A stretch of DNA of 63,852 nt, counting the filler, from Candidatus Coatesbacteria bacterium (lineage in GTDB: Bacteria; JAFGND01), in NCBI GenBank assembly GCA_016927185.1. It is 4 parts of 4 records of this genome, joined end to end, with 100 filler letters (N's around TTAATTAATTAA, not from the genome) between each part and the next. Parts side by side here need not be neighbours in the genome. Positions count along the whole stretch, not along the records: positions 32,168 to 60,033 come from JAFGND010000107.1; 3 more parts are not named here. The stretch is one strand, 5' to 3'. A model generated the notes under the pieces. The model was not told the DNA's origin and did no database searches. It worked only from the letters and a program-made list of their open reading frames with translations. The position numbers were made by a program, and so were the translations under genes. Positions 1-60,133 of this stretch are shown one piece after another. How positions within the stretch are numbered: position 1 is the stretch's first letter; each line of letters begins with the position of its first letter.

Positions 1-954
1 ATATGCTTGTGCACCATCTTTTGTAACGCAATAGAAATAATAGGAAGTATCCCCGAAATATATTCTTCCCTGGGAATCTATTGCTACAGGAACAGTAGGT
101 TGGTTTGTGGTCTCATAAGTCCATAAACTGTCACCATTTGCTGGATTGAATGCATGAATATTATGTTTGTTGGTGCTGTTGTTCCAGGCCGCTGAATACA
201 TCTGGCTATTGGCTTCATCAAGGCATAATCCCCATACATAAGCCCAGCTCATTGTTTTATGCCACAATTCTGTTCCATTCCTGTCCCAGCAATAATAAGT
301 CTTGCTTGAGTAGTTTGTTATATATGAACGAGCTTGTGCATCAACAACAACATCACAATAAGCATATGTTCCTGAATCATATTTGTACCATTTATAACTC
401 GGTTCATTTACCCTGTGAGCATAAAGCCTGCTTCCTGATTGATCAGTAACTACATAAATGGTTGAGCTTCCATCATATCCGGGGCCGTAATTGATTCTTC
501 CGCTAAGCTGGCTTCTCCATTGGAGATTTCCATCAAAGAACAATGAGTACAGGTATCCTCCAGTATCACCAAAATATATCTTGCCATAGTCATCTATGAC
601 AGCAGATTTTCCTATTGGATTCTGTGCCCTGAATCTCCAAACTAATTTACCAGTAGCTGTAAGGCAATAAAGATAGCCTGATGAGGTTCCGAAGAATATT
701 CTCTGATTATGATCCTCAACAGCAGGTCCTGATATTGTGGAACCAGCATTATATGTCCATTGTATTTTGATCCCACTCATACTGGCAGCAATAGCGGTTC
801 TGCTAGTTCTAGCCATGTTGCATCCAAAAGCAGGCCATGCACCTGTATTCTGGGCATCACAATCTCCACCCCTCAATCTTAATGATGTGTCTGCATAAAT
901 AAAACTGATGCTCAAAAACAATATAAGCAGAATAAAAGTCATACATCTAAACAT
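1..954 (-). CDS. Secreted PQQ-like beta-propeller repeat protein (3' end runs off the window)
   Basis: Not in the ORF track. Manual translation is open from ATG 954 (GGAAAGGAG RBS) to base 1: MFRCMTFILLILFLSISFIYA signal peptide, WPAFGCNMARTS, and repeats such as IFFGTSSGYLYCL...LVWRF and IYFGDTGGYLYSL...LQW. Confidence 0.85.
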   Translation of the reverse strand, partial: MFRCMTFILLILFLSISFIYADTSLRLRGGDCDAQNTGAWPAFGCNMARTSRTAIAASMSGIKIQWTYNAGSTISGPAVEDHNQRIFFGTSSGYLYCLTATGKLVWRFRAQNPIGKSAVIDDYGKIYFGDTGGYLYSLFFDGNLQWRSQLSGRINYGPGYDGSSTIYVVTDQSGSRLYAHRVNEPSYKWYKYDSGTYAYCDVVVDAQARSYITNYSSKTYYCWDRNGTELWHKTMSWAYVWGLCLDEANSQMYSAAWNNSTNKHNIHAFNPANGDSLWTYETTNQPTVPVAIDSQGRIYFGDTSYYFYCVTKDGAQAY

Positions 955-1117: not shown

Positions 1118-2860
1118 ATGACTAATTTCAAACTTCCGGAGTTTTCAAAAACAATAATTGAAAAATATAAATCATTCCAGAATAATCAATTTTTGTTATA
1201 TGGAAATATCAATGACATTTATCCTTACGAAGAGGATAATTATCTGCCGTTAAATGAATTTCTGGAAAAAGCATTGATACTTCCTGAATATAAGCAGGTT
1301 AAGAAAATCATCATAAATTATGACCTGGCAAAAGGCCTTGAAATTCCCTATCCAGAAGACAAGGAACTTTTACAAACAGAATTTTCACCTAATCTGCTTG
1401 ACCAGGCTGTAGTAAGAAGCATAAATAATCCATTAATCGCATTGAATTTTCTCGTTGAGGCAACCAAAAGAACATTTTATAGATTTGTTGAAAATGAGAA
1501 TCAGTCAAAAGCAGAGGTTGTCCCTTTGGCGATAATAATTAAATATGCAGATTCATTATTGCCTGAAGGTACATTTGACAGATTATCAGATACTGACAGG
1601 CAGAGAATTACTCTGTTTCTGGAATGGTTCAGCAGCAGAAAATTCTCACACAGTACTAATATAGTATTTCTGATAAGTGAAACGCTTTCATCAGTAAATT
1701 ATAAGATAAGGGATCTGCCTTACCTGGCTCCTATAATGGTCACTAGACCTAATTCAGAGATGCGCGAAAATTTTATAGAAAAAATGCAGAATGAATACAA
1801 TCTGGAATTAAACATGGAAATAAAGCAGGTATCTTTTTTTACTGCAGGCCTTTCTCTGGTGAATATTCAGCAAATATTTAATCAGGCATCATATTCAAAG
1901 ATACCGTTAACAGTAGATTCTATTTTCTCTAAAACCAAGGAAATAATTGAGAAAGAGCTTTCAGGACATGTAGAAATCCAGGATATTGACTATGGATTTG
2001 AAAAGGTTATTGGAGCTACAAAATTGAAAAACAAGCTAATTGAAATAAAAAAGTGCATAGACAGCGGAAACGTAGATCTTATGCCAACTGGTATACTTGT
2101 TCCAGGTCCTAATGGAGTAGGAAAGACTTTCATTTTCAAGGCATTCGCGAAAGAATGTGGCTGGATAACTGTTGTCTTGAAAAATATAAGGGGAGCATAT
2201 GTTGGTGAAACAGAATCAAGATGGGAGATGATAAGGAATGTTCTGGAAAGTATGGGCAAGGTTCTTGTATTTTATGACGAAGCAGACACTCAACTAGGAG
2301 GTAGAGGACCTTATACCCATGATGTGGATAAGAGATTGTTCGGCTCAATCATGTCAATGATGAGTGCGAATAAGAACAGGGGAAGAATTATCTGGATAAT
2401 AATAACTGCAAGACCTGATAAACTGGAACCTGACATAAAAAGATCAGGAAGGGCAGGGGAGCATCTTGCAGTATTTGATCCAGAAGATGATGAAAAAGAT
2501 GATTTCCTGGAATGGATTCTCAAGAAGGTTGGGATAGAATGGAATACTCTCTCTGATGAAGAAAAAAAAGGATTTCTTGAAAAAACTAATTCATACAGTG
2601 CTGCAGATTATGAAGAGTTGCTCCATCACTGTCAGAGAAGAAAATTCATATGTGGCGAATTTGGTCTGGATGAACTTTTCAAGGAAGTCAGTAATTTCAT
2701 CCCAACAGATATTTCTCTTCAAAGGGAGCTTCAGCAGCTGGTTGCTCTTGTAGAATGTACTACTGCAGATCTTATCCCATCCAAATTCAAAGATCTCTCC
2801 AAGGCAGATGCTTTTGAGAGGATAAGGGAGATAAAAAATATACTGAGAGAGGATATATAG
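1118..2860 (+). CDS. AAA+ family ATPase
   Basis: Walker A GPNGVGKT, Walker B VFYDEAD, YVGETE pore loop, RSGR arginine finger; degenerate N-terminal AAA-like region. Confidence 0.85.
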   Translation: MTNFKLPEFSKTIIEKYKSFQNNQFLLYGNINDIYPYEEDNYLPLNEFLEKALILPEYKQVKKIIINYDLAKGLEIPYPEDKELLQTEFSPNLLDQAVVRSINNPLIALNFLVEATKRTFYRFVENENQSKAEVVPLAIIIKYADSLLPEGTFDRLSDTDRQRITLFLEWFSSRKFSHSTNIVFLISETLSSVNYKIRDLPYLAPIMVTRPNSEMRENFIEKMQNEYNLELNMEIKQVSFFTAGLSLVNIQQIFNQASYSKIPLTVDSIFSKTKEIIEKELSGHVEIQDIDYGFEKVIGATKLKNKLIEIKKCIDSGNVDLMPTGILVPGPNGVGKTFIFKAFAKECGWITVVLKNIRGAYVGETESRWEMIRNVLESMGKVLVFYDEADTQLGGRGPYTHDVDKRLFGSIMSMMSANKNRGRIIWIIITARPDKLEPDIKRSGRAGEHLAVFDPEDDEKDDFLEWILKKVGIEWNTLSDEEKKGFLEKTNSYSAADYEELLHHCQRRKFICGEFGLDELFKEVSNFIPTDISLQRELQQLVALVECTTADLIPSKFKDLSKADAFERIREIKNILREDI

Positions 2861-16251: not shown

Positions 16252-16351
16252 NNNNNNNNNNNNNNNNNNNNNNNNNNNNNNNNNNNNNNNNNNNNTTAAT
16301 TAATTAANNNNNNNNNNNNNNNNNNNNNNNNNNNNNNNNNNNNNNNNNNNN
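16252..16351. other. Artificial contig linker
   Basis: N-run, TTAATTAATTAA (stops in all frames), N-run; 100 nt. Confidence 0.98.
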
Positions 16352-32067: not shown

Positions 32068-32167
32068 NNNNNNNNNNNNNNNNNNNNNNNNNNNNNNNNN
32101 NNNNNNNNNNNTTAATTAATTAANNNNNNNNNNNNNNNNNNNNNNNNNNNNNNNNNNNNNNNNNNNN
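32068..32167. other. Artificial contig linker
   Basis: N-run, TTAATTAATTAA, N-run. Confidence 0.98.
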
Positions 32168-37179: not shown

Positions 37180-38070
37180 ATGAAAAATATGAAAATTTTA
37201 TTTGTTATTCTTATAAGCCTGCTCTTTACTACTCATTGCATTCTAGTGCAGAGAGATAATCCTTATGATACAGATGATAGTGGATCAGGTACTGGTACCG
37301 GCACAGGTACAGGAACGGGCACAGGTACCGGCACAGGCACAGGAACGGGAACGGGCACTGGAACGGGTACAGGTGAGGGACTAAGCATAAAGATTAACAC
37401 TCCAGAAAACAGGGGAGAATCTGCAGATGGTCTTTATACCATACAATGGGAATATACTTGTGACAAGGGAGAACCATCTGTAAGTCTGTATATTGATACA
37501 AACAATTCTCAAGGAGATGAATTCTTGATTGCTGAAAACCTTCCCTCAGATCCCATGCTTTTTGAATGGCATTGTGACAAAGTCCCTTCAGGGGATTATT
37601 ATATAAAAGGAATAATAGATGATGGCCTGGGAAATAAAAGAACGATCAACAATCTGGGTAAATTCAGCAAAAGAAAGTCATCATTATCTCCTTTCTTTAA
37701 GAATATTGGAGACAAGAAAGAAACAAGATATGATTATTCTACTTATTCCTTGAAGGTGAATCATGCGGCAAAGAAATTCATGATACTTGTTGTAAGACCT
37801 TGTGCAGGAGATTATGCAAACAATACATTCACAATCAAGTGGTGGTATGAAACACCTCAACAGAATACAGTAAATGTCTTGCTTTTCTATGGCAGAAATA
37901 GTGTATGGCTGCCTGTATGGCCTTTGCCACTACCAGCCACAAAAGGCGAATATATATGGGACTGTTCTGCTATACCTAATGGTGACTATTATATAAGAGC
38001 TGATCTCATGGAAGGGAACGTAGAAAGAGCATCTGATGAATCAGATGGTTATCTTGAAATAAGACATTAA
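37180..38070 (+). CDS. Lipoprotein with Gly-Thr repeat linker and two Ig-like domains
   Basis: Lipobox TTHC, RDNPYD, (GT)n linker, two W.C..(V/I)P.GDYYI domains. Confidence 0.75.
   Translation: MKNMKILFVILISLLFTTHCILVQRDNPYDTDDSGSGTGTGTGTGTGTGTGTGTGTGTGTGTGTGEGLSIKINTPENRGESADGLYTIQWEYTCDKGEPSVSLYIDTNNSQGDEFLIAENLPSDPMLFEWHCDKVPSGDYYIKGIIDDGLGNKRTINNLGKFSKRKSSLSPFFKNIGDKKETRYDYSTYSLKVNHAAKKFMILVVRPCAGDYANNTFTIKWWYETPQQNTVNVLLFYGRNSVWLPVWPLPLPATKGEYIWDCSAIPNGDYYIRADLMEGNVERASDESDGYLEIRH
37288..37371 (+). repeat. Gly-Thr dipeptide repeat, about 14 units
   Basis: GGN-ACN hexamers with varied third positions. Confidence 0.9.
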
Positions 38071-38072
38071 GA

Positions 38073-38102
38073 AATAAGGGAGATTTTTATGTCTCCCTTA
38101 TT
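38073..38102. terminator. Hairpin between convergent genes
   Basis: AATAAGGGAGA/TCTCCCTTATT inverted repeat. Confidence 0.65.
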
Positions 38103-38128: not shown

Positions 38129-38362
38129 TTAACCAGACTTGTTTTCAAGCAACTGGTTTAATTCTTTTAACAGATTTGCCAGACTGCTTCCCTGCCATTC
38201 CAGTATATACGCCTGAGACCCAAGCGGTGCCGCAACTGGTCTTCCTCCTCATCCATAGCAGTATACGCCATATTTAGAAAGTATTCTTATTGTTTCAGGA
38301 TGTTCTTTCATAAGCTCATCAATGTAAGTATTTTCGTTAACTTGCTTGATTTTGGTGTCCAT
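38129..38362 (-). CDS. DUF1858-like redox protein with CxxU motif (putative selenoprotein, 77 aa)
   Basis: Not in the ORF track. GGAGG RBS; reads MDTKIKQVNENTYIDELMKEHPETIRILSKYGVYCYG[TGA]GGRPVAAPLGSQAYILEWQGSSLANLLKELNQLLENKSG*, with TGA at 38249-38251. Confidence 0.75.
38216..38242 (-). promoter_or_regulatory. Putative bacterial SECIS element
   Basis: AGACC-AGUU-GCG-GCAC-CGC-UUG-GGUCU hairpin starting 7 nt after the UGA; apical loop begins with G about 19 nt downstream of the UGA. Confidence 0.55.
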
Positions 38363-38585
38363 TTTCCTCCTCTCATTTTTACAGTTGAATTATAGTGATT
38401 TGCTTGAAATCTGTCAAGAATAAGGAAAACGCATATGAAATCTTCTGTTTAAAAGACTTTACATTGATGGATTGAAAAAAGTGGGTAAAAAATGGTTTTT
38501 TTTCAAAGAAAGTCTTGACTAAATATTGGCACTCTCATTTTGCGAAGACTAGTGTTATTGCTTTAACTTCAAAAGGAAGAATACA

Positions 38586-38939
38586 ATGCGTATATCTGAT
38601 ATAGTGACAATACTTGATGCAGAGGTGCTTGCTGGAAGCAAGTTTCTTGACAGGGAGATTCCATGCGCATTCAGCTGCGATCTTATAAGTGACATCCTCA
38701 AATGCACAGCAGAACAGACAATGCTTCTGACCGGACTGACTAATCCGCAGATAATAAGAACAGCAGAAATGATAGATTTACTTGGAATAGTCATTGTCAG
38801 GGGTAATTTTGTAGCACAGGAAGTCATAGATGAAGCAGATGAAGCAGGTGTCCCTTTGCTGAGGACAAAACTGACTATGTATGAATCAAGCGGCAGACTG
38901 TTTGCTGCGGGATTGAGATCCTGCAAGATGAAGATATGA
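38586..38939 (+). CDS. DRTGG domain protein
   Basis: FSCDLISDIL, LLTGLTNPQIIRTAEM, IVIVRG. Confidence 0.85.
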   Translation: MRISDIVTILDAEVLAGSKFLDREIPCAFSCDLISDILKCTAEQTMLLTGLTNPQIIRTAEMIDLLGIVIVRGNFVAQEVIDEADEAGVPLLRTKLTMYESSGRLFAAGLRSCKMKI

Positions 38940-39424
38940 CCAACTACCATTACTCAAAAGAGAATTACAGGGAGCCTCCCATAGCGGATGCTGATGAGGA
39001 TCATATCTCATTGAGTTTTCCGATTGAAGGTGGGGATTTCACTCATGCCGGATATGGATCAAGTGAGATAAAACGCACTTTGAAAAAACTGGCTGCTGAT
39101 CCCAAGATAGTTAGAAGAATTGCCATTGCCGCATATGAAGCAGAGATAAATGTGGTAGCTCATGCATATAAGGGAAGAATAAGTGCAGTAATATCAAGTG
39201 ATGCGATAAGGGTTTTCATTGAGGATCAGGGACCTGGTATCCCTGATATTGAACAGGCAATGCAGCCGGGATTTTCTACTGCCTCACCAAAGGTAAGGGA
39301 AATGGGATTCGGTGCAGGTCTTGGTTTACCCAATATAAGAGATAACGTAGATTTTCTTCATATTGAATCAGAAGTGAGTATAGGAACGATTTTACAATTC
39401 TGCATATTATTTAGAAATGAATAG
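38936..39424 (+). CDS. Anti-sigma regulatory factor, Ser/Thr kinase (HATPase_c)
   Basis: GGDFTHAG, AAYEAEINVVAH, DQGPGI, GFGAGLGLPNI. Confidence 0.88.
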   Translation: MTNYHYSKENYREPPIADADEDHISLSFPIEGGDFTHAGYGSSEIKRTLKKLAADPKIVRRIAIAAYEAEINVVAHAYKGRISAVISSDAIRVFIEDQGPGIPDIEQAMQPGFSTASPKVREMGFGAGLGLPNIRDNVDFLHIESEVSIGTILQFCILFRNE

Positions 39425-40667
39425 GGATTATTTTCATAGTGTAAGAATTATTGATGAGAGATGTAATGGCTGTACACATTGCATAAGGGCATGTGAGACT
39501 GAAGCAATAAGGGTGCGCCATGGAAAAGCAATAATCCATGAAGTAAGGTGTATAGACTGCGGAGAGTGCATAAGAATATGCCCAAGGAATGCTGCAGTTG
39601 CAGCTTCAGACGATTTATCAGAATTGAAAAGGTTCAGTTATAATGTTGCGCTTCCATCTACTGCTTTTACAGCGCAATGTCCTTCCCAGCATAAACTCAA
39701 TAAACTGTACAATGGATTGCTGCATTTAGGTTTTAATGATGTTTTCGAAGAATCAAGGACAAACTCCATAATTTCATATGCAGTAAACAAGTTCCTGAAG
39801 GAAAATGCAAGGATAAAACCTTATATAAGCAGCGTTTGTCCAGCTGTTGTCAGGTTGATACAAGTGAGATTCCCTTCACTTGTAGAACATATAATTCCTA
39901 TAGAAACACCGCTTGAAATATCTGCAAGAATTATCAGAGAGCAGAAAAGCAGGTTGCTTGGTATAGAACCTGAGAAACTCGGGATCTTCTATATAACAAC
40001 TTGTCCTGCAAGGGTTACTGCAATCAAGCAACCTGTAGGAACTGAGATTTCAAGTATTGATGGAGCAATAGCAATTTGCAATATAATAAACAAGATTCTT
40101 GTTTTTATTGATCAGGTGGAAGAAAAAGAGAACTTCTGTAAAGCTCCTCCTTCTGCCAACAGATGGGGTGCAGTGGGTGGAGAAGTGAGAGCATTGGATA
40201 CCGACAAGACATTGTCTGTTGACGGGATAAGCAACGTTGTACAGGTTTTAAATAAGGTAGAAAACTATGAACTGGAGATGTTTGACTTTATAGAAGCTTA
40301 TGCTTGTCCATGTGGATGTGTAGGTGGTGTTCTTAATTTCGAAAATCCGTATGTAGCAAAGCAGAGGATTTATATACAAGGCAAATCCAATGAAAATATC
40401 ATAGACAAGGAAATGCTTGAAATAGCAGAAGAGATGTATGAAAACAAGACGCTTTTCCTGGCAGAGGAAGTTGAACCAAGACCAGTACTGAAGCTGGATA
40501 CAGATATGAGAAAAGCAATACAGAAACTGGAGAAACTGGAAAGAATTCTCAAGGATCTGCCGGGAATAGATTGCGGAGCTTGTGGATGTCCGACATGCAG
40601 AGCTCTGGCAGAAGATATTGTCCAGGGTAACGCAAATATTGAAGATTGTATTTTTATAAGGAAGTGA
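39417..40667 (+). CDS. [FeFe]-hydrogenase-like (sensory/degenerate H-cluster) protein with ferredoxin and C-terminal Fe-S domains
   Basis: CNGCTHC..C and CIDCGEC..CP; degenerate H-cluster motifs ISSVCP, TTCPAR, EAYACPCGCVGG; LPGIDCGACGCPTC. Confidence 0.85.
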   Translation: MNRDYFHSVRIIDERCNGCTHCIRACETEAIRVRHGKAIIHEVRCIDCGECIRICPRNAAVAASDDLSELKRFSYNVALPSTAFTAQCPSQHKLNKLYNGLLHLGFNDVFEESRTNSIISYAVNKFLKENARIKPYISSVCPAVVRLIQVRFPSLVEHIIPIETPLEISARIIREQKSRLLGIEPEKLGIFYITTCPARVTAIKQPVGTEISSIDGAIAICNIINKILVFIDQVEEKENFCKAPPSANRWGAVGGEVRALDTDKTLSVDGISNVVQVLNKVENYELEMFDFIEAYACPCGCVGGVLNFENPYVAKQRIYIQGKSNENIIDKEMLEIAEEMYENKTLFLAEEVEPRPVLKLDTDMRKAIQKLEKLERILKDLPGIDCGACGCPTCRALAEDIVQGNANIEDCIFIRK

Positions 40668-40673
40668 TATTCA

Positions 40674-41018
40674 ATGAGAATCAAGGAGATAATTGAAAAA
40701 CTCAATCTCACTGTTTATTTTTCACCTGAGGAAGATGCCGAAATCACTGGAGGATATGCATGTGATCTTCTCTCAGATGTCATGGGGCATGCAGATGCAG
40801 GCTCTATATGGGTAACAATACAGACGCATCAGAATATTGTTGCAGTTGCAGTTCTAGCTAATTTGCCTGCTATTGTATTATCCAGGGGAGTAAAACCGCA
40901 GGATTTGACAATAGATAAATGCAGGGATGAATCTGTCTATCTTCTTGGAACAGAAGAAACAACATTTGAAATGACAGGAAGGTTATACGATCTGGGAATC
41001 AGGGGAACAAAGAGATAA
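40674..41018 (+). CDS. DRTGG domain protein
   Basis: GGYACDLLSDVMG, IWVTIQTHQNIVAVA. Confidence 0.85.
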   Translation: MRIKEIIEKLNLTVYFSPEEDAEITGGYACDLLSDVMGHADAGSIWVTIQTHQNIVAVAVLANLPAIVLSRGVKPQDLTIDKCRDESVYLLGTEETTFEMTGRLYDLGIRGTKR

Positions 41019-41021
41019 ACT

Positions 41022-41789
41022 ATGCCTACATTCAAGATAGATCTTCACATTCATAGTGTCTTGTCTCCATGTTCAGATTTGATGATGAGTCCTTCCAGGA
41101 TACTTGACAGAGCCAGTGAAGTTGGTCTTGATATAATTGCGATTTCGGATCATAATATGGCTGAAAATGGAAAAGCTCTTGCAGAACTGAAACTAAGAAA
41201 TTTTTCAGCTCCTGAGTGTTTTTTCGGGATGGAATTGCAGACAGAGGAAGAAGTACATCTGCTTTGCTTGTTTGAAGCTATTGATACAGCTATGATTATG
41301 CAGGAAGAAATATATCCCTTGCTTATATCCCAGCCGAATAATCCAGATTTATTTGGATATCAGATAGTTGTTGATGAATTTGATGAAATAATAAGGCATG
41401 AGGAGAAACTTCTCATAAGTTCAGTAATGTTGAGGATAAATGATGTATTCAAGAAGGTTACTGATCTTGAAGGCATTGTCATCCCCTCACATATTGACAG
41501 GGAGAGTTTCAGCATAATATCCCAGCTAGGCTTTATCCCTGCTGATATACCATTTCCGACAGTGGAATTATCCAGAAATGCTGATATTAACAGCTTCATA
41601 AATGATCCATCCTTTTCTAATCTGAATCTTGTCACATTTTCTGATTCGCACAGGATTGAGGAAATTGGTACAGCATGGACTGAAATAGAATTGGAAGATA
41701 GAAGTTTTGCATGTTTCAAAGAAGCTATTTCTATGAAAAGCGCAAAACCTTTTAAAATAAGGAGGAGTGTTAATGGTTACACAAACTAA
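41022..41789 (+). CDS. PHP domain phosphoesterase
   Basis: DLHIHSVLSPC, ISDHN, GMELQTEEEVH, PSHIDR, SDSH. Confidence 0.88.
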   Translation: MPTFKIDLHIHSVLSPCSDLMMSPSRILDRASEVGLDIIAISDHNMAENGKALAELKLRNFSAPECFFGMELQTEEEVHLLCLFEAIDTAMIMQEEIYPLLISQPNNPDLFGYQIVVDEFDEIIRHEEKLLISSVMLRINDVFKKVTDLEGIVIPSHIDRESFSIISQLGFIPADIPFPTVELSRNADINSFINDPSFSNLNLVTFSDSHRIEEIGTAWTEIELEDRSFACFKEAISMKSAKPFKIRRSVNGYTN

Positions 41790-42261
41790 GATTATTAGTC
41801 TGGAAGAATACATCCCAGAACTTGATGAGATCATCCGGCAGCACAAGGGTTTGAAAGGTTCACTGATACAGGTTTTACACAAAGCCCAGCAAGGATTCGG
41901 ATATTTGCCAATTGAACTTCAGAAATATGTTGCTGAAGGTTTGAAAGTGCCATATAGTGAAGTATACAGCGTTGTCACCTTTTATTCTTTCTTCAGTATG
42001 GAGCCCAAAGGACGTCATATAATAAAAGTATGTCTAGGCACTGCCTGCTTTGTAAGAGGCTCTGCTAAAATAGTAACTTATCTTGAAGAAAAGTTTGGAA
42101 TCCCGTTGAGCAAGACAACAGAAGACAGACGCTTCACTCTTGATAGTGCACGCTGTCTGGGAGCATGTTCGCTTGCTCCGGTAATGATGGTCAATGAGGA
42201 TGTATATGGAAGGCTGACACCGGAGAAAGCCTACAAGATATTGATGGAAACATACGAGTAG
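41767..42261 (+). CDS. NuoE/HydC-like 2Fe-2S subunit
   Basis: LIQVLHKAQ, VVTFYSFF, CLGTAC, CLGAC. Confidence 0.9.
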   Translation: MLMVTQTKIISLEEYIPELDEIIRQHKGLKGSLIQVLHKAQQGFGYLPIELQKYVAEGLKVPYSEVYSVVTFYSFFSMEPKGRHIIKVCLGTACFVRGSAKIVTYLEEKFGIPLSKTTEDRRFTLDSARCLGACSLAPVMMVNEDVYGRLTPEKAYKILMETYE

Positions 42262-42803
42262 TGGAGGAATTATCACTTCATATACTAGATATAGCTGAGA
42301 ATTCCATAAAAGCGAATGCCTCTTTTGTAACTATAGAAATTATAGAGGATATTGATACAGACAAAATGGAAATAGAAATTACAGACAATGGTTTCGGAAT
42401 GAGTGATAAAATGATAGAGAAAGCTCTTTCTCCGTTCTTTTCTACAAGAACGACCAGAAAGATTGGTCTGGGTCTTCCTCTCTTCAAGGATACAGTTGAA
42501 GCTTGTGAAGGAAGCATAAAACTGACTTCGGAGATTAACAGAGGAACGAAGGTTTATGCTTCACTAAGGCATTCTCATATAGACAGACCGCCACTTGGAG
42601 AAATTGCAGATACCATACTTATGCTTGTCATAAGCTATCCTGACAGGGATTTCCTGTACAGGCACAAGAAGGGAAACAGGGAATTCACTTTTGACACAAG
42701 GGAGATAAAGGAAATCCTTGGAACTGAAGTAAGTATTAATCATCCGGAGGTCAGGAGCTGGCTTTTGGAAACGCTTAAATCTGGAGAAAAAGAATTAAAT
42801 TAA
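42261..42803 (+). CDS. Histidine kinase-like ATPase (HATPase_c)
   Basis: ELSLHILDIAENS, DNGFGM, GLGLP, HIDRPPLG. Confidence 0.88.
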   Translation: MEELSLHILDIAENSIKANASFVTIEIIEDIDTDKMEIEITDNGFGMSDKMIEKALSPFFSTRTTRKIGLGLPLFKDTVEACEGSIKLTSEINRGTKVYASLRHSHIDRPPLGEIADTILMLVISYPDRDFLYRHKKGNREFTFDTREIKEILGTEVSINHPEVRSWLLETLKSGEKELN

Positions 42804-42818
42804 AATAGGAGGTTTTCC

Positions 42819-43181
42819 ATGAATTTAGAGGAACTAAGAAAACTTAAGGAAAAGGCTCAGGCTGATTTGAAAGTGCGTGCTGAATCTGCAAAAATCAAGA
42901 TAATCGTGGGGATGGGAACCTGTGGAATAGCAGCTGGAGCACGTCCTGTAATGCAGGCATTCCTGGAGGAAGTGGAAAGAAGAAATCTCAAGGATGTATT
43001 GATAACTCAGAGTGGCTGCAAGGGAATATGTGCCATGGAACCTGTTGTTGACGTAGAAATTGAGGGAGAGAAATCAATAACCTATGGGTACATGACACCT
43101 GAAAAAGCTAAGAAAGTCATAGCAGAACATATAGTAAATGGCACACCGGTAAGTGAATATATAGTTAGTACTCAAGGATAA
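42819..43181 (+). CDS. Thioredoxin-like 2Fe-2S ferredoxin (HydD/HndB-like)
   Basis: VGMGTCGIAAGA, SGCKGICAMEP. Confidence 0.88.
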   Translation: MNLEELRKLKEKAQADLKVRAESAKIKIIVGMGTCGIAAGARPVMQAFLEEVERRNLKDVLITQSGCKGICAMEPVVDVEIEGEKSITYGYMTPEKAKKVIAEHIVNGTPVSEYIVSTQG

Positions 43182-43196
43182 GGATAGGAGGGAATT

Positions 43197-46100
43197 TTGA
43201 CTACCCGTTTACATGTCTTGCTTTGTGCAGGAGCTGCATGTGTTAGCTCTGGTGGTGATTCTGTAAAACTGAGACTGCAAGAGGAAATGGACAAAGCTAA
43301 AATTGCAGATGAAGTTGATATAATCGAGACAGGATGCATGGGTCCGTGTAATCTGGGACCTATTGTTGTCATTTATCCTGAAGGTGTTTTTTACAAGAAA
43401 GTCAAACCTGATGATGCTTATGAGATAGTAAATGAGCACTTCCTCAAGGGACGTCTTGTCTCAAGATTGCTTGTTACTGATGAGGAGAAAAAAGAGGCAA
43501 TTGCCGCACAGAAGGATATTGGTTTCTTCAAGGATCAAGTCAAGGTAGTATTGGAGAACAGCGGACAGATTGATCCAGAGAAAATAGAAGAATATATTGC
43601 CAGAGATGGTTATTCTGCTCTTGCCAAAGTGCTTACTGAAATGACTCCACAGCAGGTGATTGAAGAAGTCACAAAATCTGGCTTGAGAGGAAGAGGTGGT
43701 GGAGGTTTCCCAACAGGAATGAAATGGAAGCTTGTTGCAGGTAACAAGGGAGAATGCAAATACGTAGTATGCAATGCTGATGAAGGGGATCCAGGAGCAT
43801 TCATGGATAGATCCGTTCTTGAAGGTGATCCCCATAAGGTGCTTGAAGCAATGACTGTTGCAGCTTATGCTGTCTGCGGCAAGGAAATCCCTGCTTATGG
43901 TTACATATATGTGAGAGCTGAGTATCCTCTTGCAATAAAGAGACTTGAAATTGCCATCAAGCAGGCTAGAGAATTCGGCTTTCTGGGTAAGAATATATTC
44001 GAGACAGGTTTTGACTTTGATATAAATCTGAGAATGGGTGCAGGAGCTTTTGTATGTGGTGAGGAAACAGCTCTGCTCTCGTCCATAGAAGGCAAGCGCG
44101 GATGGCCGAAGCCAAGACCTCCATATCCCGCGGTAAAAGGGCTTTTTGCACAACCGACTCTTCTGAATAATGTGGAAACCTATGCAAACATACCCTCAAT
44201 AATAAGAAAGGGCGGGGAATGGTTTGCAGGTTTCGGAACAGAGAAAAGCAAGGGAACAAAGGTTTTTGCCCTGGCAGGAAATGTAGTTAATACAGGATTA
44301 GTGGAAGTTCCTATGGGAATACCTCTTGGAGACATAATTTTCAAGATAGGAGCAGGAATTCCTAATGGCAAGAGATTCAAGGCAGCACAGGTAGGAGGTC
44401 CTTCTGGAGGATGCATTCCTATACAGCATCTTAATGTCAAGATGGACTATGAAAGTCTGGTTGACCTGGGAGCAATAATTGGATCAGGTGGACTGGTCAT
44501 AATGGATGAAGATACATGTATGGTCAATCTTGCAAAGTACTTCATGGAGTTCCTGGTTGAGGAATCTTGTGGACAATGTGTTCCGTGCAGAGTCGGGACA
44601 AAGCAATTGCTTGAAATCCTTAACAGGATTTGCTCAGGCAAAGGCAAAATGGAAGACCTGGATACACTGGAAGAACTGGGAAAAATGATAAAGACAGCCA
44701 GTTTCTGTGGTCTTGGGCAGACAGCTCCGAATGCAGTACTGACTACACTAAGATATTTCAGGGATGAATATATTGAACATATCAAATATGGATATTGCCG
44801 TGCTGGTGCATGTGCTGATCTGGTTCTTGCCCCATGCACTAATATATGTCCAGCTGATGTAGATGTACCTGCATATCTATCATATGTAGCTGAAGGCAAG
44901 TTCAAGGAAGCAGTTGCAGTCCACAGGGAGAAGAACCCATTCCCGGCAGCTCTTGGAAGGATCTGCCCACATGAATGCATGTCTAAATGCAGGAGGGGAA
45001 CATCTGACACGCCTATTGGAATAAGAAGCGTAAAGCGTTTCATTGCAGATTTTCAGGAAGAGCTTCCGGTCTACAAAGTGGCAGCTACAAAAGAAAAAGT
45101 CGCCATAATTGGTGCAGGTCCATCTGGATTGACTGCTGCATATTTCCTGGCAAAAAAAGGTTACAAGGTTACTGTTTATGAGAAGCTGAATGTCAAGGGA
45201 GGGATGCTGAGGGTTGGAATACCTGATTACAGGCTGCCTCCTGATATCCTTGAAAGGGAAATATCACTCATTGAGAATCTTGGAGTTGAAATAAAACATG
45301 GCAAGGAATTCGGCAAAGACATCACTATAAAGAGCCTGAAAAAGGAAGGATATAAAGCTATTTATGTTGCCATTGGAGCTCACAAGGGACTGAAACTTGG
45401 GCTTGAAGGCGAGGATCTGGATGGAGTCTTTGATGGAGTGACATTGCTGCGCAAACTCAATCTGGGAGAAGATTGCAAGATCAAGAACAAGAAAGTGGCT
45501 GTTATCGGTGGAGGCAATGTAGCAATTGATGTAGCAAGAAGTGCCTGGAGAAAGGGAGCCAGTGAAGTTCATATAATCTACCGAAGAGAACGCAAGGACA
45601 TGCCAGCTTATCTGGATGAAATAGAAGATGCAGAACTTGAAGGAATAAAGATTCATACTCTTCTTTCCCCAGAGAAAATCATGGGGAATGGAAAGGTTGA
45701 GAAACTGGCAGCAAGAAAGAATGAACTTGGTATATTTGACAACAGCGGCAGAAGAAAACCGATACCCTTGAAGTGCGATTTGCAGGAATTCAAGGTTGAT
45801 ATGGTTATAGCTGCTATTGGACAGGAACCTGATGGTGACATTCTTTCTGGAGAAGGTCTTGAACTGAACAAGAACAAGACTGTAAAAGCTGATGTAGAAA
45901 CTCTTTTGACAAATATTGAAGGCGTATTCGCTGGAGGAGATCTTGTATCAGGCCCTGCCAGTGCAGTAGAGGCAATTGGGCAAGCTCAGAAAGCAGCAAG
46001 CGCTATAGACAAATATCTGGGTGGAGATGGCTATCTCTATGACAAGAAAGGTTTTGAAATCCCTGTTACATATAATGAAGATGCATATCTTGAAACAAGA

Positions 46101-46250
46101 AAGATATTCAGGGAGTCAGGTCTGCCTGTAGAAAAACGCTGTTGCACTAATGAAGAGGTTTATGAGACAATAAGCAAGGAAGCAGCGATTGAGGAATCGA
46201 AGCATTGCCTGCATTGTGACAGGGGAAAACGTCCCTTATTGGAAACTTAA
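43197..46250 (+). CDS. NuoF/HydB-like FMN/NADH subunit fused to a GltD-like FAD/NAD(P)H oxidoreductase
   Basis: N-terminal 2Fe-2S CAGAAC...GCMGPC, GRGGGGFP, NADEGDPG, CGEET, SCGQCVPC; then CTNICP...CPHECMSKC, GAGPSG, GGGNVA. Confidence 0.9.
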   Translation: MTTRLHVLLCAGAACVSSGGDSVKLRLQEEMDKAKIADEVDIIETGCMGPCNLGPIVVIYPEGVFYKKVKPDDAYEIVNEHFLKGRLVSRLLVTDEEKKEAIAAQKDIGFFKDQVKVVLENSGQIDPEKIEEYIARDGYSALAKVLTEMTPQQVIEEVTKSGLRGRGGGGFPTGMKWKLVAGNKGECKYVVCNADEGDPGAFMDRSVLEGDPHKVLEAMTVAAYAVCGKEIPAYGYIYVRAEYPLAIKRLEIAIKQAREFGFLGKNIFETGFDFDINLRMGAGAFVCGEETALLSSIEGKRGWPKPRPPYPAVKGLFAQPTLLNNVETYANIPSIIRKGGEWFAGFGTEKSKGTKVFALAGNVVNTGLVEVPMGIPLGDIIFKIGAGIPNGKRFKAAQVGGPSGGCIPIQHLNVKMDYESLVDLGAIIGSGGLVIMDEDTCMVNLAKYFMEFLVEESCGQCVPCRVGTKQLLEILNRICSGKGKMEDLDTLEELGKMIKTASFCGLGQTAPNAVLTTLRYFRDEYIEHIKYGYCRAGACADLVLAPCTNICPADVDVPAYLSYVAEGKFKEAVAVHREKNPFPAALGRICPHECMSKCRRGTSDTPIGIRSVKRFIADFQEELPVYKVAATKEKVAIIGAGPSGLTAAYFLAKKGYKVTVYEKLNVKGGMLRVGIPDYRLPPDILEREISLIENLGVEIKHGKEFGKDITIKSLKKEGYKAIYVAIGAHKGLKLGLEGEDLDGVFDGVTLLRKLNLGEDCKIKNKKVAVIGGGNVAIDVARSAWRKGASEVHIIYRRERKDMPAYLDEIEDAELEGIKIHTLLSPEKIMGNGKVEKLAARKNELGIFDNSGRRKPIPLKCDLQEFKVDMVIAAIGQEPDGDILSGEGLELNKNKTVKADVETLLTNIEGVFAGGDLVSGPASAVEAIGQAQKAASAIDKYLGGDGYLYDKKGFEIPVTYNEDAYLETRKIFRESGLPVEKRCCTNEEVYETISKEAAIEESKHCLHCDRGKRPLLET

Positions 46251-46270
46251 TAAATAAAAAGGGGTAAGGT

Positions 46271-46732
46271 ATGGATATAAAAGCAATAATAAGTAAATAC
46301 GATCCACCTGAAGAGAATTTGATACCAATACTGCATGATATTCAGGAAGCAACTGAGCTCAAATATCTGAAGGATGAAGATCTTGTAGCTGTTGCTGATT
46401 ACATGAATATACCATTAAGTGAGATTCATGGGACAGTGACGTTCTATTCTATGTTCAGCAGGACTCCAAGAGGAAGGCATATAATAAGAGTCTGTGAAAG
46501 TGCTCCCTGTCACTTGATGGGTGCAACAACTATAATACAAGCACTTGAAGCAATACTGGGTATTAAAGTTGGCGAAACTACAAAGGACAAGAATTTTACA
46601 CTGGAGCTTACAGCATGTCTTGGCATATGTGCAGTAGCTCCAGCTATGATGATTGACAGTGAAATGCATGGTAATCTTACTCTAGAGAAGGTAAAGGAGA
46701 TTATTGATGGATACAGGAAGGAGGTGTCATAA
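46271..46732 (+). CDS. Second NuoE/HydC-like 2Fe-2S subunit
   Basis: LIPILHDIQ, TFYSMF, CESAPC, CLGIC. Confidence 0.9.
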   Translation: MDIKAIISKYDPPEENLIPILHDIQEATELKYLKDEDLVAVADYMNIPLSEIHGTVTFYSMFSRTPRGRHIIRVCESAPCHLMGATTIIQALEAILGIKVGETTKDKNFTLELTACLGICAVAPAMMIDSEMHGNLTLEKVKEIIDGYRKEVS

Positions 46733-48312
46733 TGGCACTCTATAGGAGTCACATACTTTTGGGGATTGATGCAGAGACCATTATGGCAGGCGTCAATGAA
46801 GTCAAAAAAGCTATCTTTACTGAACTTGAAAACAGGGGTCTGGATAATGAAGTAAAGGTCGTTGAGACTGGCACACTTGGAATTGCAGGTCGCGGTGTCG
46901 TAATGGTAATATATCCTGAAGGAGTCTATTATGCAGGATTGACGGTTGATGCTATTCCTGCGTTGATTGAAGAGCATATAGTAAAAGGAAGAACATTAAA
47001 ATCCCATCAGATAACTCCACCTGTCAAGGCACAGAGAGTTTCTCTTGCTTCCGACAGGAGAGGTACTGAGATTAAGGAGAGAATAGTTCTCAAGAATGTA
47101 GGAAGGATAGATCCGGAGAATATTCAAGAATATATTGCTGCAGACGGCTATGAAGGACTCGGAAAAGCTCTCTCTATACAGCCCAAGGAAGTCATTGACT
47201 TGATAAAGGCAAGTAACCTCAAAGGAAGAGGCGGAGCTGGTTTCCCGACTGGATTGAAATGGTCATTCACTGCTTCTGCAAAAGGAGATCAGAAATACGT
47301 AATCTGTAATGCTGATGAAGGCGAACCTGGTACATTCAAGGACAGGCTGATAATGGAAGGCGATCCACACAAGGTACTGGAAGGAATGGCTATATGCGGA
47401 TATGCTGTTGGTGCTACAATCGGGATAATATATATAAGAGGTGAATACGCACTTTCCATAAAAAATATAAAGAAAGCAATTGCTGATGCAAAGAAACTAG
47501 GCTTGCTTGGCAAGAATATCTTCGGAAGCGGGTTTGATTTTGATGTTAGAGTGAATCTTGGGGCAGGTGCATATGTATGTGGCGAGGAAACTGCTTTAAT
47601 AGAGTCTATTGAGGGACATCGCGGAAATCCCAGAAAGAAGCCTCCATTCCCTGCTAATGCTGGATTATGGCAGAAACCGACAAATGTCAATAATGTAGAG
47701 ACTTTCGCAAATATTGGCCCTATTCTTCTTAATGGTGCTGACTGGTTCAAGAACTTTGGAACAAAAGACAGTGCTGGAACCAAGGTTTATACGCTTCTCG
47801 GTCATATAAATACTCCTGGACTGATTGAGGTTCCTATGGGAATTACATTGAGGCAGATAATATCAGATTTTGGTGGAGGAATGCTTGGGGGCAAGAAGTT
47901 CAAACTTGCACAGATTGGAGGAACTGCAGGTGGAATTCTTGGTCCTGACTTGCTTGATGTGCCTCTTTGTTATGAAAACATGGCAGAATATAGCCTGGTA
48001 CTTGGTTCAGGTGCAATACTGGTAATGGATGAGACAACAGACACCAGAGCAATACTTACTTGCTTTTTGAAATTCTTCAAGCATGAGAGTTGTGGGCAGT
48101 GTGTACCATGCAGACTTGGTTCAAAGAAGATGCTGGATCTTTCCAGAGGGCTTGAGAATGGTACTGGAAAGAAAGAGGATCTGGATCTCATTATTGAGAT
48201 TGCAGACTCTATGTTCAAGGCGAGTTTATGTCCACTTGGCCAAAGCCCGATACTTCCCATTAAGGGAATGGTGAAGTACTTCAAAGATGAATTACTGGCA
48301 AAGGTTTCTTAG
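46732..48312 (+). CDS. Second NuoF/HydB-like subunit
   Basis: GRGGAGFP, NADEGEPG, CGEET, SCGQCVPC...SLCPLG; the N-terminal thioredoxin-like domain lacks Cys ligands. Confidence 0.9.
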   Translation: MALYRSHILLGIDAETIMAGVNEVKKAIFTELENRGLDNEVKVVETGTLGIAGRGVVMVIYPEGVYYAGLTVDAIPALIEEHIVKGRTLKSHQITPPVKAQRVSLASDRRGTEIKERIVLKNVGRIDPENIQEYIAADGYEGLGKALSIQPKEVIDLIKASNLKGRGGAGFPTGLKWSFTASAKGDQKYVICNADEGEPGTFKDRLIMEGDPHKVLEGMAICGYAVGATIGIIYIRGEYALSIKNIKKAIADAKKLGLLGKNIFGSGFDFDVRVNLGAGAYVCGEETALIESIEGHRGNPRKKPPFPANAGLWQKPTNVNNVETFANIGPILLNGADWFKNFGTKDSAGTKVYTLLGHINTPGLIEVPMGITLRQIISDFGGGMLGGKKFKLAQIGGTAGGILGPDLLDVPLCYENMAEYSLVLGSGAILVMDETTDTRAILTCFLKFFKHESCGQCVPCRLGSKKMLDLSRGLENGTGKKEDLDLIIEIADSMFKASLCPLGQSPILPIKGMVKYFKDELLAKVS

Positions 48313-60033: not shown

Positions 60034-60133
60034 NNNNNNNNNNNNNNNNNNNNNNNNNNNNNNNNNNNNNNNNNNNNTTAATTAATTAANNNNNNNNNNN
60101 NNNNNNNNNNNNNNNNNNNNNNNNNNNNNNNNN
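60034..60133. other. Artificial contig linker
   Basis: N-run, TTAATTAATTAA, N-run. Confidence 0.98.

Follow-up and report, generated by a model that had tools for sequence, protein, structure and literature searches.

Introduction

Selenoproteins with a DUF1858 domain have been described previously. Zhang et al. (2022; PMC9312934) list a "DUF1858 domain-containing protein" selenoprotein family (PF08984) with a CxxU motif and WP_012065717.1 as its exemplar, and the same CxxU family is also a table row in a 2026 review (PMC13188914); CxxU is the only form that these two published tables give for DUF1858. Within a thioredoxin-like family, selenocysteine (Sec) has been reported at either position of a pair (PMC2398784). 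Term searches did not find the name DUF1858 in the main text of PMC2398784 or PMC5029168, both of which are cited for the family, and none of the papers listed by a full-text literature search carries the term in its title or abstract.

Here we analyze a DUF1858-like gene from a Candidatus Coatesbacteria genome (GCA_016927185.1) that has an in-frame TGA where its relatives encode the second Cys of CxxC. The initial annotation of this DNA had proposed a hidden selenoprotein, missed by ORF calling and tied to an adjacent Fe-S/flavin gene cluster. We find that the gene very probably does encode a selenoprotein, and that it is a new, divergent member of the known DUF1858 CxxU selenoprotein family; it is not a new kind of selenoprotein, since the family already stands in the tables of PMC9312934 and PMC13188914.

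Results

A DUF1858-like gene with TGA at the position of the second cysteine codon

The window, by which we mean the whole 63,852-nt stretch of DNA that was analyzed, consists of several contigs joined by runs of N at 16252-16351, 32068-32167 and 60034-60133, and only positions 32168-60033 (contig C40) are contiguous with the gene under study. The host genome is metagenome-assembled and comprises 2.99 Mb in 109 contigs with a GC content of 36%. The DUF1858-like gene runs from 38362 to 38129 on the minus strand and has 77 codons, of which codon 38 is TGA (Table 1). When this TGA is read as U, the product is 77 residues long, contains the motif C35-Y-G-U38 with C35 as its sole Cys, and ends in a ...LLKELNQLL helix. 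The ORF listed under translation table 11 ends at 37 residues, and databases record the protein solely as a 37-residue stub (P0002), so the full product has been missed by gene callers. The initial annotation was right on this point, and also in stating that the frame remains open from the TGA, through the LLKELN helix, to a TAA; the open stretch covers 39 codons.

The promoter-like site upstream of the gene is the only one in the region, where shuffled sequences contain a mean of 2.5; the count is therefore not enriched, although the perfect match of this site to the consensus is notable. On the strength of the consensus match, we regard it as a candidate sigma-70-type promoter of the DUF1858-like gene. 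At the other end, the terminator-like hairpin lies in a 67-nt stretch that folds with −16.1 kcal/mol (z = −3.15) and was equalled in stability by 1 of 200 shuffles; the hairpin is absent from the list produced by a pattern scan of the region. The convergent neighbor is a lipoprotein-like ORF with a Kre9/KNH-like Ig domain and about 20 Gly-Thr dipeptides near 37263-37400, and it shows several amino-acid differences between strains.

Table 1. Positions in the window of the DUF1858-like gene, its predicted signals and its neighbors.
Feature	Position	Strand	Description
Promoter-like site, TTGACA-17 nt-TATAAT	38389..38417	-	12/12 consensus match; ends 27 nt upstream of the ATG
Shine-Dalgarno-like GAGAGGAGG	38366..38374	-	3-nt spacer to the ATG at 38362; read from the sequence
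Codons 1-37	38252..38362	-	Helices 1-2 of the DUF1858-like domain, ending C35-Y-G; Pfam and TIGR03980 matches
In-frame TGA, codon 38, putative Sec	38249..38251	-	Homologues have the second Cys of CxxC here
Alternative hairpin	38216..38242	-	Apical loop GCAC from +22; minimum-energy fold, −10.6 kcal/mol
SECIS-like hairpin	38210..38226	-	6-bp stem, loop GGUCU; architecture shared with FdhA, HdrA and SelD
Codons 39-77	38132..38248	-	G-G-R-P insertion, helices 3-4, family ...ELN... motif; homology and coding score
TAA stop	38129..38131	-	39 codons past the TGA
Terminator-like hairpin	38073..38102	-	11 bp and U-rich tail; between the DUF1858-like gene and the convergent gene
Convergent lipoprotein-like ORF	37180..38070	+	
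Divergent Fe-S/flavin cluster	38586..48312	+	11 ORFs

Family membership and predicted fold

The two profiles against which the initial annotation proposed to check the product are its sole matches in their respective databases, and both matches fall below the curated cut-offs: in Pfam the product matches DUF1858 (PF08984; residues 9-44, E = 3.2e-6) at 27.6 bits, with a gathering cut-off of 32.2, and in NCBIfam it matches TIGR03980 (residues 9-38) at 31.5 bits, with a cut-off of 44.95. Alignments by tblastn with nine Cys-type homologue loci extend across residues 5-76 and thus cover both sides of the TGA, with CxxC falling on C-Y-G-U. In a 12-row alignment (A1), whose Cys-type homologues share 25-40% identity with the candidate, P22, C35, G58 and L68 are invariant, while at position 38 Cys stands in 10 of the other 11 rows and Trp in one. 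The initial placement of the TGA at the second Cys of the family, with homology continuing beyond it, is thereby upheld. Several Cys-type homologues pass the Pfam DUF1858 cut-off with 35.8-88 bits (the L018 paralogues with 64-65, L025 with 88), and the loci aligned by tblastn include two tandem Cys-type paralogues from the same genome (C59:24322-24729). A profile derived from A1 scores the candidate at 85 bits, the candidate being itself a row of A1. Judged by its end-to-end similarity to members that pass the cut-off and by the fold match described below, the candidate appears clearly DUF1858-like despite both sub-threshold profile scores.

AlphaFold, run on A1, predicts four helices (mean pLDDT 81.6, pTM 0.72), and the model is poorly defined only at residues 39-42 (G-G-R-P). 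The best Foldseek matches are 2k53 (TM 0.72, E = 0.028) and 2k5e (TM 0.66, E = 0.049), both with weak E-values, and 2fi0 follows far lower in E-value rank (TM 0.61, E = 4.8). These three structures, which we take to be DUF1858 members, are of small uncharacterised Cys proteins, and the predicted fold superposes on each of them. The sequence of 2k5e can also be aligned with the candidate, with C-I-G-C on C-Y-G-U (E = 0.23).

Relatives were also sought in larger collections. A search of 1.84 billion representative proteins gave 22 hits, 16 of which are 492-1911 residues long with several matched stretches; one of these long hits, the TPR-repeat protein P0003, was judged spurious. Protein cluster look-ups of the relatives returned no names. 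No homologue was recovered with the candidate protein in a search at near lengths or in a scan of metagenome contigs. The scan of genome contigs yielded two loci, both spurious high-GC frames, and none of the 27 loci found in metagenome contigs with a back-translated C-Y-G-TGA-G-G-R-P pattern proved DUF1858-like.

Two distant relatives among the representative proteins bear directly on codon 38. P0013 (37 residues, 50% identical) ends at the same C-Y-G, and P0004 (77 residues, 44% identical) reads C-Y-G-W-G-G-R-P and remains similar through its C-terminus. The stop after P0013 would be a TGA, and the W of P0004 is probably a TGA that the gene caller translated under another code on a 779-bp contig. 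In A1 the four-residue G-G-R-P insertion immediately after Sec is common only to the candidate and P0004, and a Cys-type member of this insertion-bearing subgroup was found nowhere among the 22 database hits. The candidate, P0004 and P0013 are the three known members of a divergent DUF1858 branch, and none of them has Cys at this position.

Selenocysteine machinery and other in-frame TGA codons of the host

The Sec machinery for which the initial annotation called is present in full: the genome contains selB (334.6 bits, cut-off 242), selA (342 bits, cut-off 268; an intact ORF of 383 residues), selD (327 bits, above the curated cut-off, with an in-frame TGA of its own) and a tRNA-Sec gene (68.3 bits, above the cut-off), which ARAGORN confirms as tRNA-SeC with anticodon tca. 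The selA gene (L006 1459..2610, minus strand, contig C83) begins near position 70 of the TIGR00474 profile and shares 4 nt with an upstream ORF of 127 residues; it apparently lacks the N-terminal region of other SelA proteins, though the genome clearly uses Sec.

Three other selenoprotein genes, FdhA (C65), HdrA (C82) and SelD (C1), each have a Pfam or NCBIfam domain that spans the in-frame TGA. When 19 read-through candidates were run through Pfam, two (FdhA and HdrA) had a domain across a TGA at a classical Sec position. A selenoprotein screen based on coding score only (206 candidates) missed the DUF1858-like gene, which scored 0.24 bits per codon at a threshold of 0.25.

Some further in-frame TGA codons deserve mention in their own right. 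L061 (C38:14812-16284, minus strand; TGA at C38:15912) encodes a PQQ-like beta-propeller with a T9SS sorting tail, and its TGA falls inside one repeat at a place where the sister repeats have Gly (S-S-P-C-V-S-D-G-V-V-Y). We would put this TGA, which has no GGUC hairpin after it, down to plain nonsense or an assembly error and not to Sec. L068, in the same genome and outside the window (C68:81443-82174, minus strand), has 243 codons and encodes a signal peptide and a right-handed beta-helix/DUF5123-like protein with an in-frame TGA in N-C-G-G-TGA-G-x-x-W. A homologue with 26% identity in an unrelated genome (L092, G062:C1, TGA at locus 1635..1633, minus strand) reads N-C-P-N-TGA-G-x-x-W, and at +21 both genes show a short hairpin with a triloop that begins with GU. 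In four further L068 homologues the TGA position is a gap or holds unrelated residues, and no Cys counterpart was seen. A term search of the selenoprotein review PMC13188914 gave no match for L068-type fold terms, and L068 and L092 may represent an unlisted family of secreted CxxU selenoproteins.

A GGUC-loop hairpin downstream of the TGA

Bacterial Sec insertion is generally incomplete. In the DUF1858-like gene, the TGA is followed by a 17-nt hairpin in which four of the six pairs are G-C, with a 5-nt loop that starts at +32 from the U of UGA; folded alone, it has an energy of −7.4 kcal/mol. Each of the host's FdhA, HdrA and SelD genes also has a hairpin of 6-7 bp, in which the GGUC loop begins at +22, +31 and +20, respectively, and the loop of the candidate is identical to that of FdhA. 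Across the genome, 93 of 141,796 TGA trinucleotides are followed by such a hairpin, a figure that is descriptive and no clean test, because the offset window (16-38) and the loop sizes (4-6) were both chosen after all four hairpins had been seen. When the 93 sites are ranked by the lower of their flanking coding scores, the top six are FdhA, HdrA, the DUF1858-like gene, two short frames (C28, C94) and SelD. In the two short frames, C94:53428 (plus strand) and C28:8603 (minus strand), the GGUC-loop hairpin behind the in-frame TGA has 10 bp and 5 bp, respectively.

We resampled the region with the peptide held fixed and synonymous codons drawn according to genome usage. A hairpin of at least 6 bp arose in 19 of 200,000 resamplings and one of at least 5 bp in 1437 of 200,000; the stem and loop contain the rare codons CCG (8% of Pro), GGG (10% of Gly) and GCG (4% of Ala). 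The GGUC hairpin is no by-product of the encoded peptide and is far from chance.

The same cannot be said of base composition or overall stability. The 57 nt after the TGA have 58% GC, compared with a mean of 53% in synonymous resampling, where the real value was reached in 14% of 5000 draws; the GC-richness is thus mostly due to the Gly/Ala/Pro-rich peptide. The minimum-energy fold after the TGA is no more stable than that of shuffled sequences (z = +0.95 and +0.41). It contains the alternative hairpin of Table 1, which is mutually exclusive with the GGUC hairpin, buries the GGUC motif in its stem and is the more stable of the two. For FdhA, too, the minimum-energy fold differs from the GGUC hairpin, so energy alone is not decisive. 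The GC-rich hairpin reported in the initial annotation therefore stands in part: the region is GC-rich and does contain a specific GGUC hairpin, but the composition comes mostly from the peptide, the minimum-energy fold resembles shuffles, and the structure first noticed was probably the most stable one, which is not the one that matches the other SECIS elements of the genome. Rfam returned only chance-level matches at E-values up to 10, with no SECIS family among them.

Reading of the in-frame TGA

The Sec machinery, the homology flanking the TGA, a SECIS-like hairpin matched within the genome, its codon choice, the other assemblies described below and the distant relatives together argue strongly that this is a genuine selenoprotein gene whose codon 38 would be read as Sec. 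Judging from the anatomy of the locus, the mRNA would start at the gene's own sigma-70-type promoter and ribosomes would initiate at the ATG at 38362. At the UGA, SelB with Sec-tRNA(Sec) would be recruited by the 17-nt GGUC-loop hairpin located about 25 nt downstream, Sec would be inserted, and a further 39 codons would be translated up to the UAA. The product would be a 77-residue cytoplasmic protein with a four-helix DUF1858 fold, with C35 and Sec38 paired in the loop that links helices 2 and 3. In the source study, two metatranscriptome runs contained next to none of the sampled sequence words.

We consider it very unlikely that the gene is instead a pseudogene, formed when one base change turned a Cys codon (TGT or TGC) into a stop and left the rest of the frame to decay. 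TGA can be reached from either of these codons by a single substitution, at least one TGA of the genome looks like plain nonsense (in L061), and both curated family scores are sub-threshold. A decaying frame, however, is at odds with other assemblies: contigs assembled from three runs, which belong to two other studies, of a biogas fermenter and another metagenome series (X2, X4 and X5; ~97% identical, at the low depth of 3-11 in the compared runs), span the TGA and show no change there or downstream. The four differences that they show within the gene, in codons 6, 11, 24 and 34, affect third positions, are synonymous and all precede the TGA, so that the synonymous pattern covers codons 1-37 only, codons 39-77 being unchanged; the end of the neighboring gene in the same contigs has non-synonymous changes. 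Decay is likewise difficult to reconcile with a coding score downstream of the TGA of +9.4 in frame, versus −37.4 and −11.0 out of frame, with a SECIS-type hairpin built from rare codons at the right distance, and with two distant relatives of which one stops and the other shows W at this residue.

Less probable again is plain termination at the UGA, with a functional product of 37 residues and a hairpin that serves, say, attenuation or mRNA stability. A peptide of this size would lack half of the four-helix domain, the family homology runs on in frame for 39 codons, and P0004 is conserved on either side of the position. Gene callers do give 37 residues for the candidate and for one relative (P0002 and P0013), and some shortened product is expected anyway if Sec insertion is incomplete.

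Little room is left for an error of assembly or sequencing that turned an ordinary Cys codon into TGA by one base. The genome was assembled from metagenomic data into 109 contigs and the run depth of 3-11 is low, but the same TGA base is found in contigs of four runs (X1, X2, X4 and X5) from three studies, of which X1 may be the source and hence not independent. None of these contigs has the TGT or TGC that the initial annotation had named, for reads, as grounds for refutation.

A reassigned code in which TGA encodes a standard amino acid (Trp or Gly) can be dismissed, the W of P0004 notwithstanding: TGA terminates 363 of the 1397 ORFs of at least 300 codons and is therefore an ordinary stop, the genome has tRNA-Sec, selA, selB and selD, and column 38 is Cys, not Trp, in 10 of 11 other rows.

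Possible function and gene neighborhood

Provided that the gene encodes a selenoprotein, we lean towards a small thiol/selenol redox protein that would form a reversible selenenylsulfide, because Sec is found at either position of the DUF1858 pair, as has been reported for thiol-oxidoreductase families. Binding of a metal or Fe-S center by the C-x-x-U pair is the main alternative, and strikes us as rather unlikely though worth keeping in view. The role of redox or metal sensor put forward in the initial annotation finds no support in the analysis.

The divergent cluster next to the gene encodes a DRTGG protein, a histidine-kinase-type ATPase (HATPase), a [FeFe]-hydrogenase-like protein with an extra C-terminal Fe-S motif, a second DRTGG-like ORF, NuoE-like proteins, a second HATPase, a 1017-residue NuoF/GltD-type fusion, and a further NuoE and NuoF. 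Its gene content resembles that of the regulatory and diaphorase portion of a locus of the bifurcating-hydrogenase type; none of its 11 ORFs was recognized as a catalytic HydA. The head-to-head arrangement with an Fe-S/flavin cluster pointed out in the initial annotation is real. The functional tie and shared promoter that it drew from this arrangement find no backing, since the DUF1858-like gene has a promoter-like site of its own and the neighbors of the Cys homologues differ from locus to locus. At seven Cys-homologue loci the neighbors are unrelated to each other and to the Fe-S/flavin cluster, with no conserved partner; they include peptidases, an Fe-S ATPase with ferredoxins, pseudouridine synthase/YceG, a P-type ATPase/rubredoxin, GreA/GAPDH and AMMECR1-Memo. 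The association with hybrid cluster protein implied by the name of TIGR03980 is absent as well, the only Prismane/HCP gene of the genome being on contig C58 and the candidate on C40.

One can imagine that the candidate belongs to a rare Sec-only side branch of DUF1858 (C-Y-G-U followed by G-G-R-P), whose selenenylsulfide pair would be a dedicated redox partner or switch for the divergent hydrogenase-type sensory and NuoE/NuoF flavoprotein cluster and not a generic DUF1858 protein; we rate this combined proposal as improbable.

Discussion

The gene described here would be the fourth selenoprotein gene, along with FdhA, HdrA and SelD, of an uncultured anaerobe from sediment and biogas-reactor metagenomes. 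Because automatic annotation cuts it to a 37-residue stub, the protein in its true form is absent from databases. Short selenoprotein genes of this sort can be found when coding scores on the two flanks of the TGA are combined with the SECIS consensus of the genome itself, here a GGUC loop on a stem of 6-7 bp. The finding opens no new kind of biology.

Like the SelB-bound SECIS of the E. coli fdhF type, the SECIS-like hairpin is short, comes soon after the UGA and has G and U in its apical loop. It differs in distance: the candidate loop begins as far out as that of HdrA and farther than those of FdhA and SelD. The FdhA loop of this genome, at +22 to +26, presumably has its G and U at the positions that are critical in E. 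coli.

Compared with the Cys-type DUF1858/TIGR03980 proteins, the candidate has equal length, the same four-helix layout and its pair at identical columns, and it differs in having Sec for the second Cys. A search of 401 sampled genomes with the A1 profile also revealed DUF1858 genes of UxxC type in three of them, all of one family (L084-L086: G199:C6, G031:C121 and G351:C63), with TGA at the first Cys in the motif G-U-L-G-C. These share the family and the pair with the candidate, whereas their Sec occupies the other position and their hairpin is longer (7-8 bp) and strong, without a GGUC loop. In the same search, the TGA codons of G395 and G088 were rejected as true C-terminal stops, and G331 was a TAG row. 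The presence of Sec at either Cys in different lineages marks the pair as the functional center of the DUF1858 family.

The closest described counterpart remains the listed DUF1858 CxxU family. As far as its table entries allow a comparison, the candidate shares with it the best Pfam match, the position of Sec as second of the pair and a small single-domain architecture; unlike that family as listed, it falls below the Pfam cut-off and carries the G-G-R-P insertion directly after Sec.
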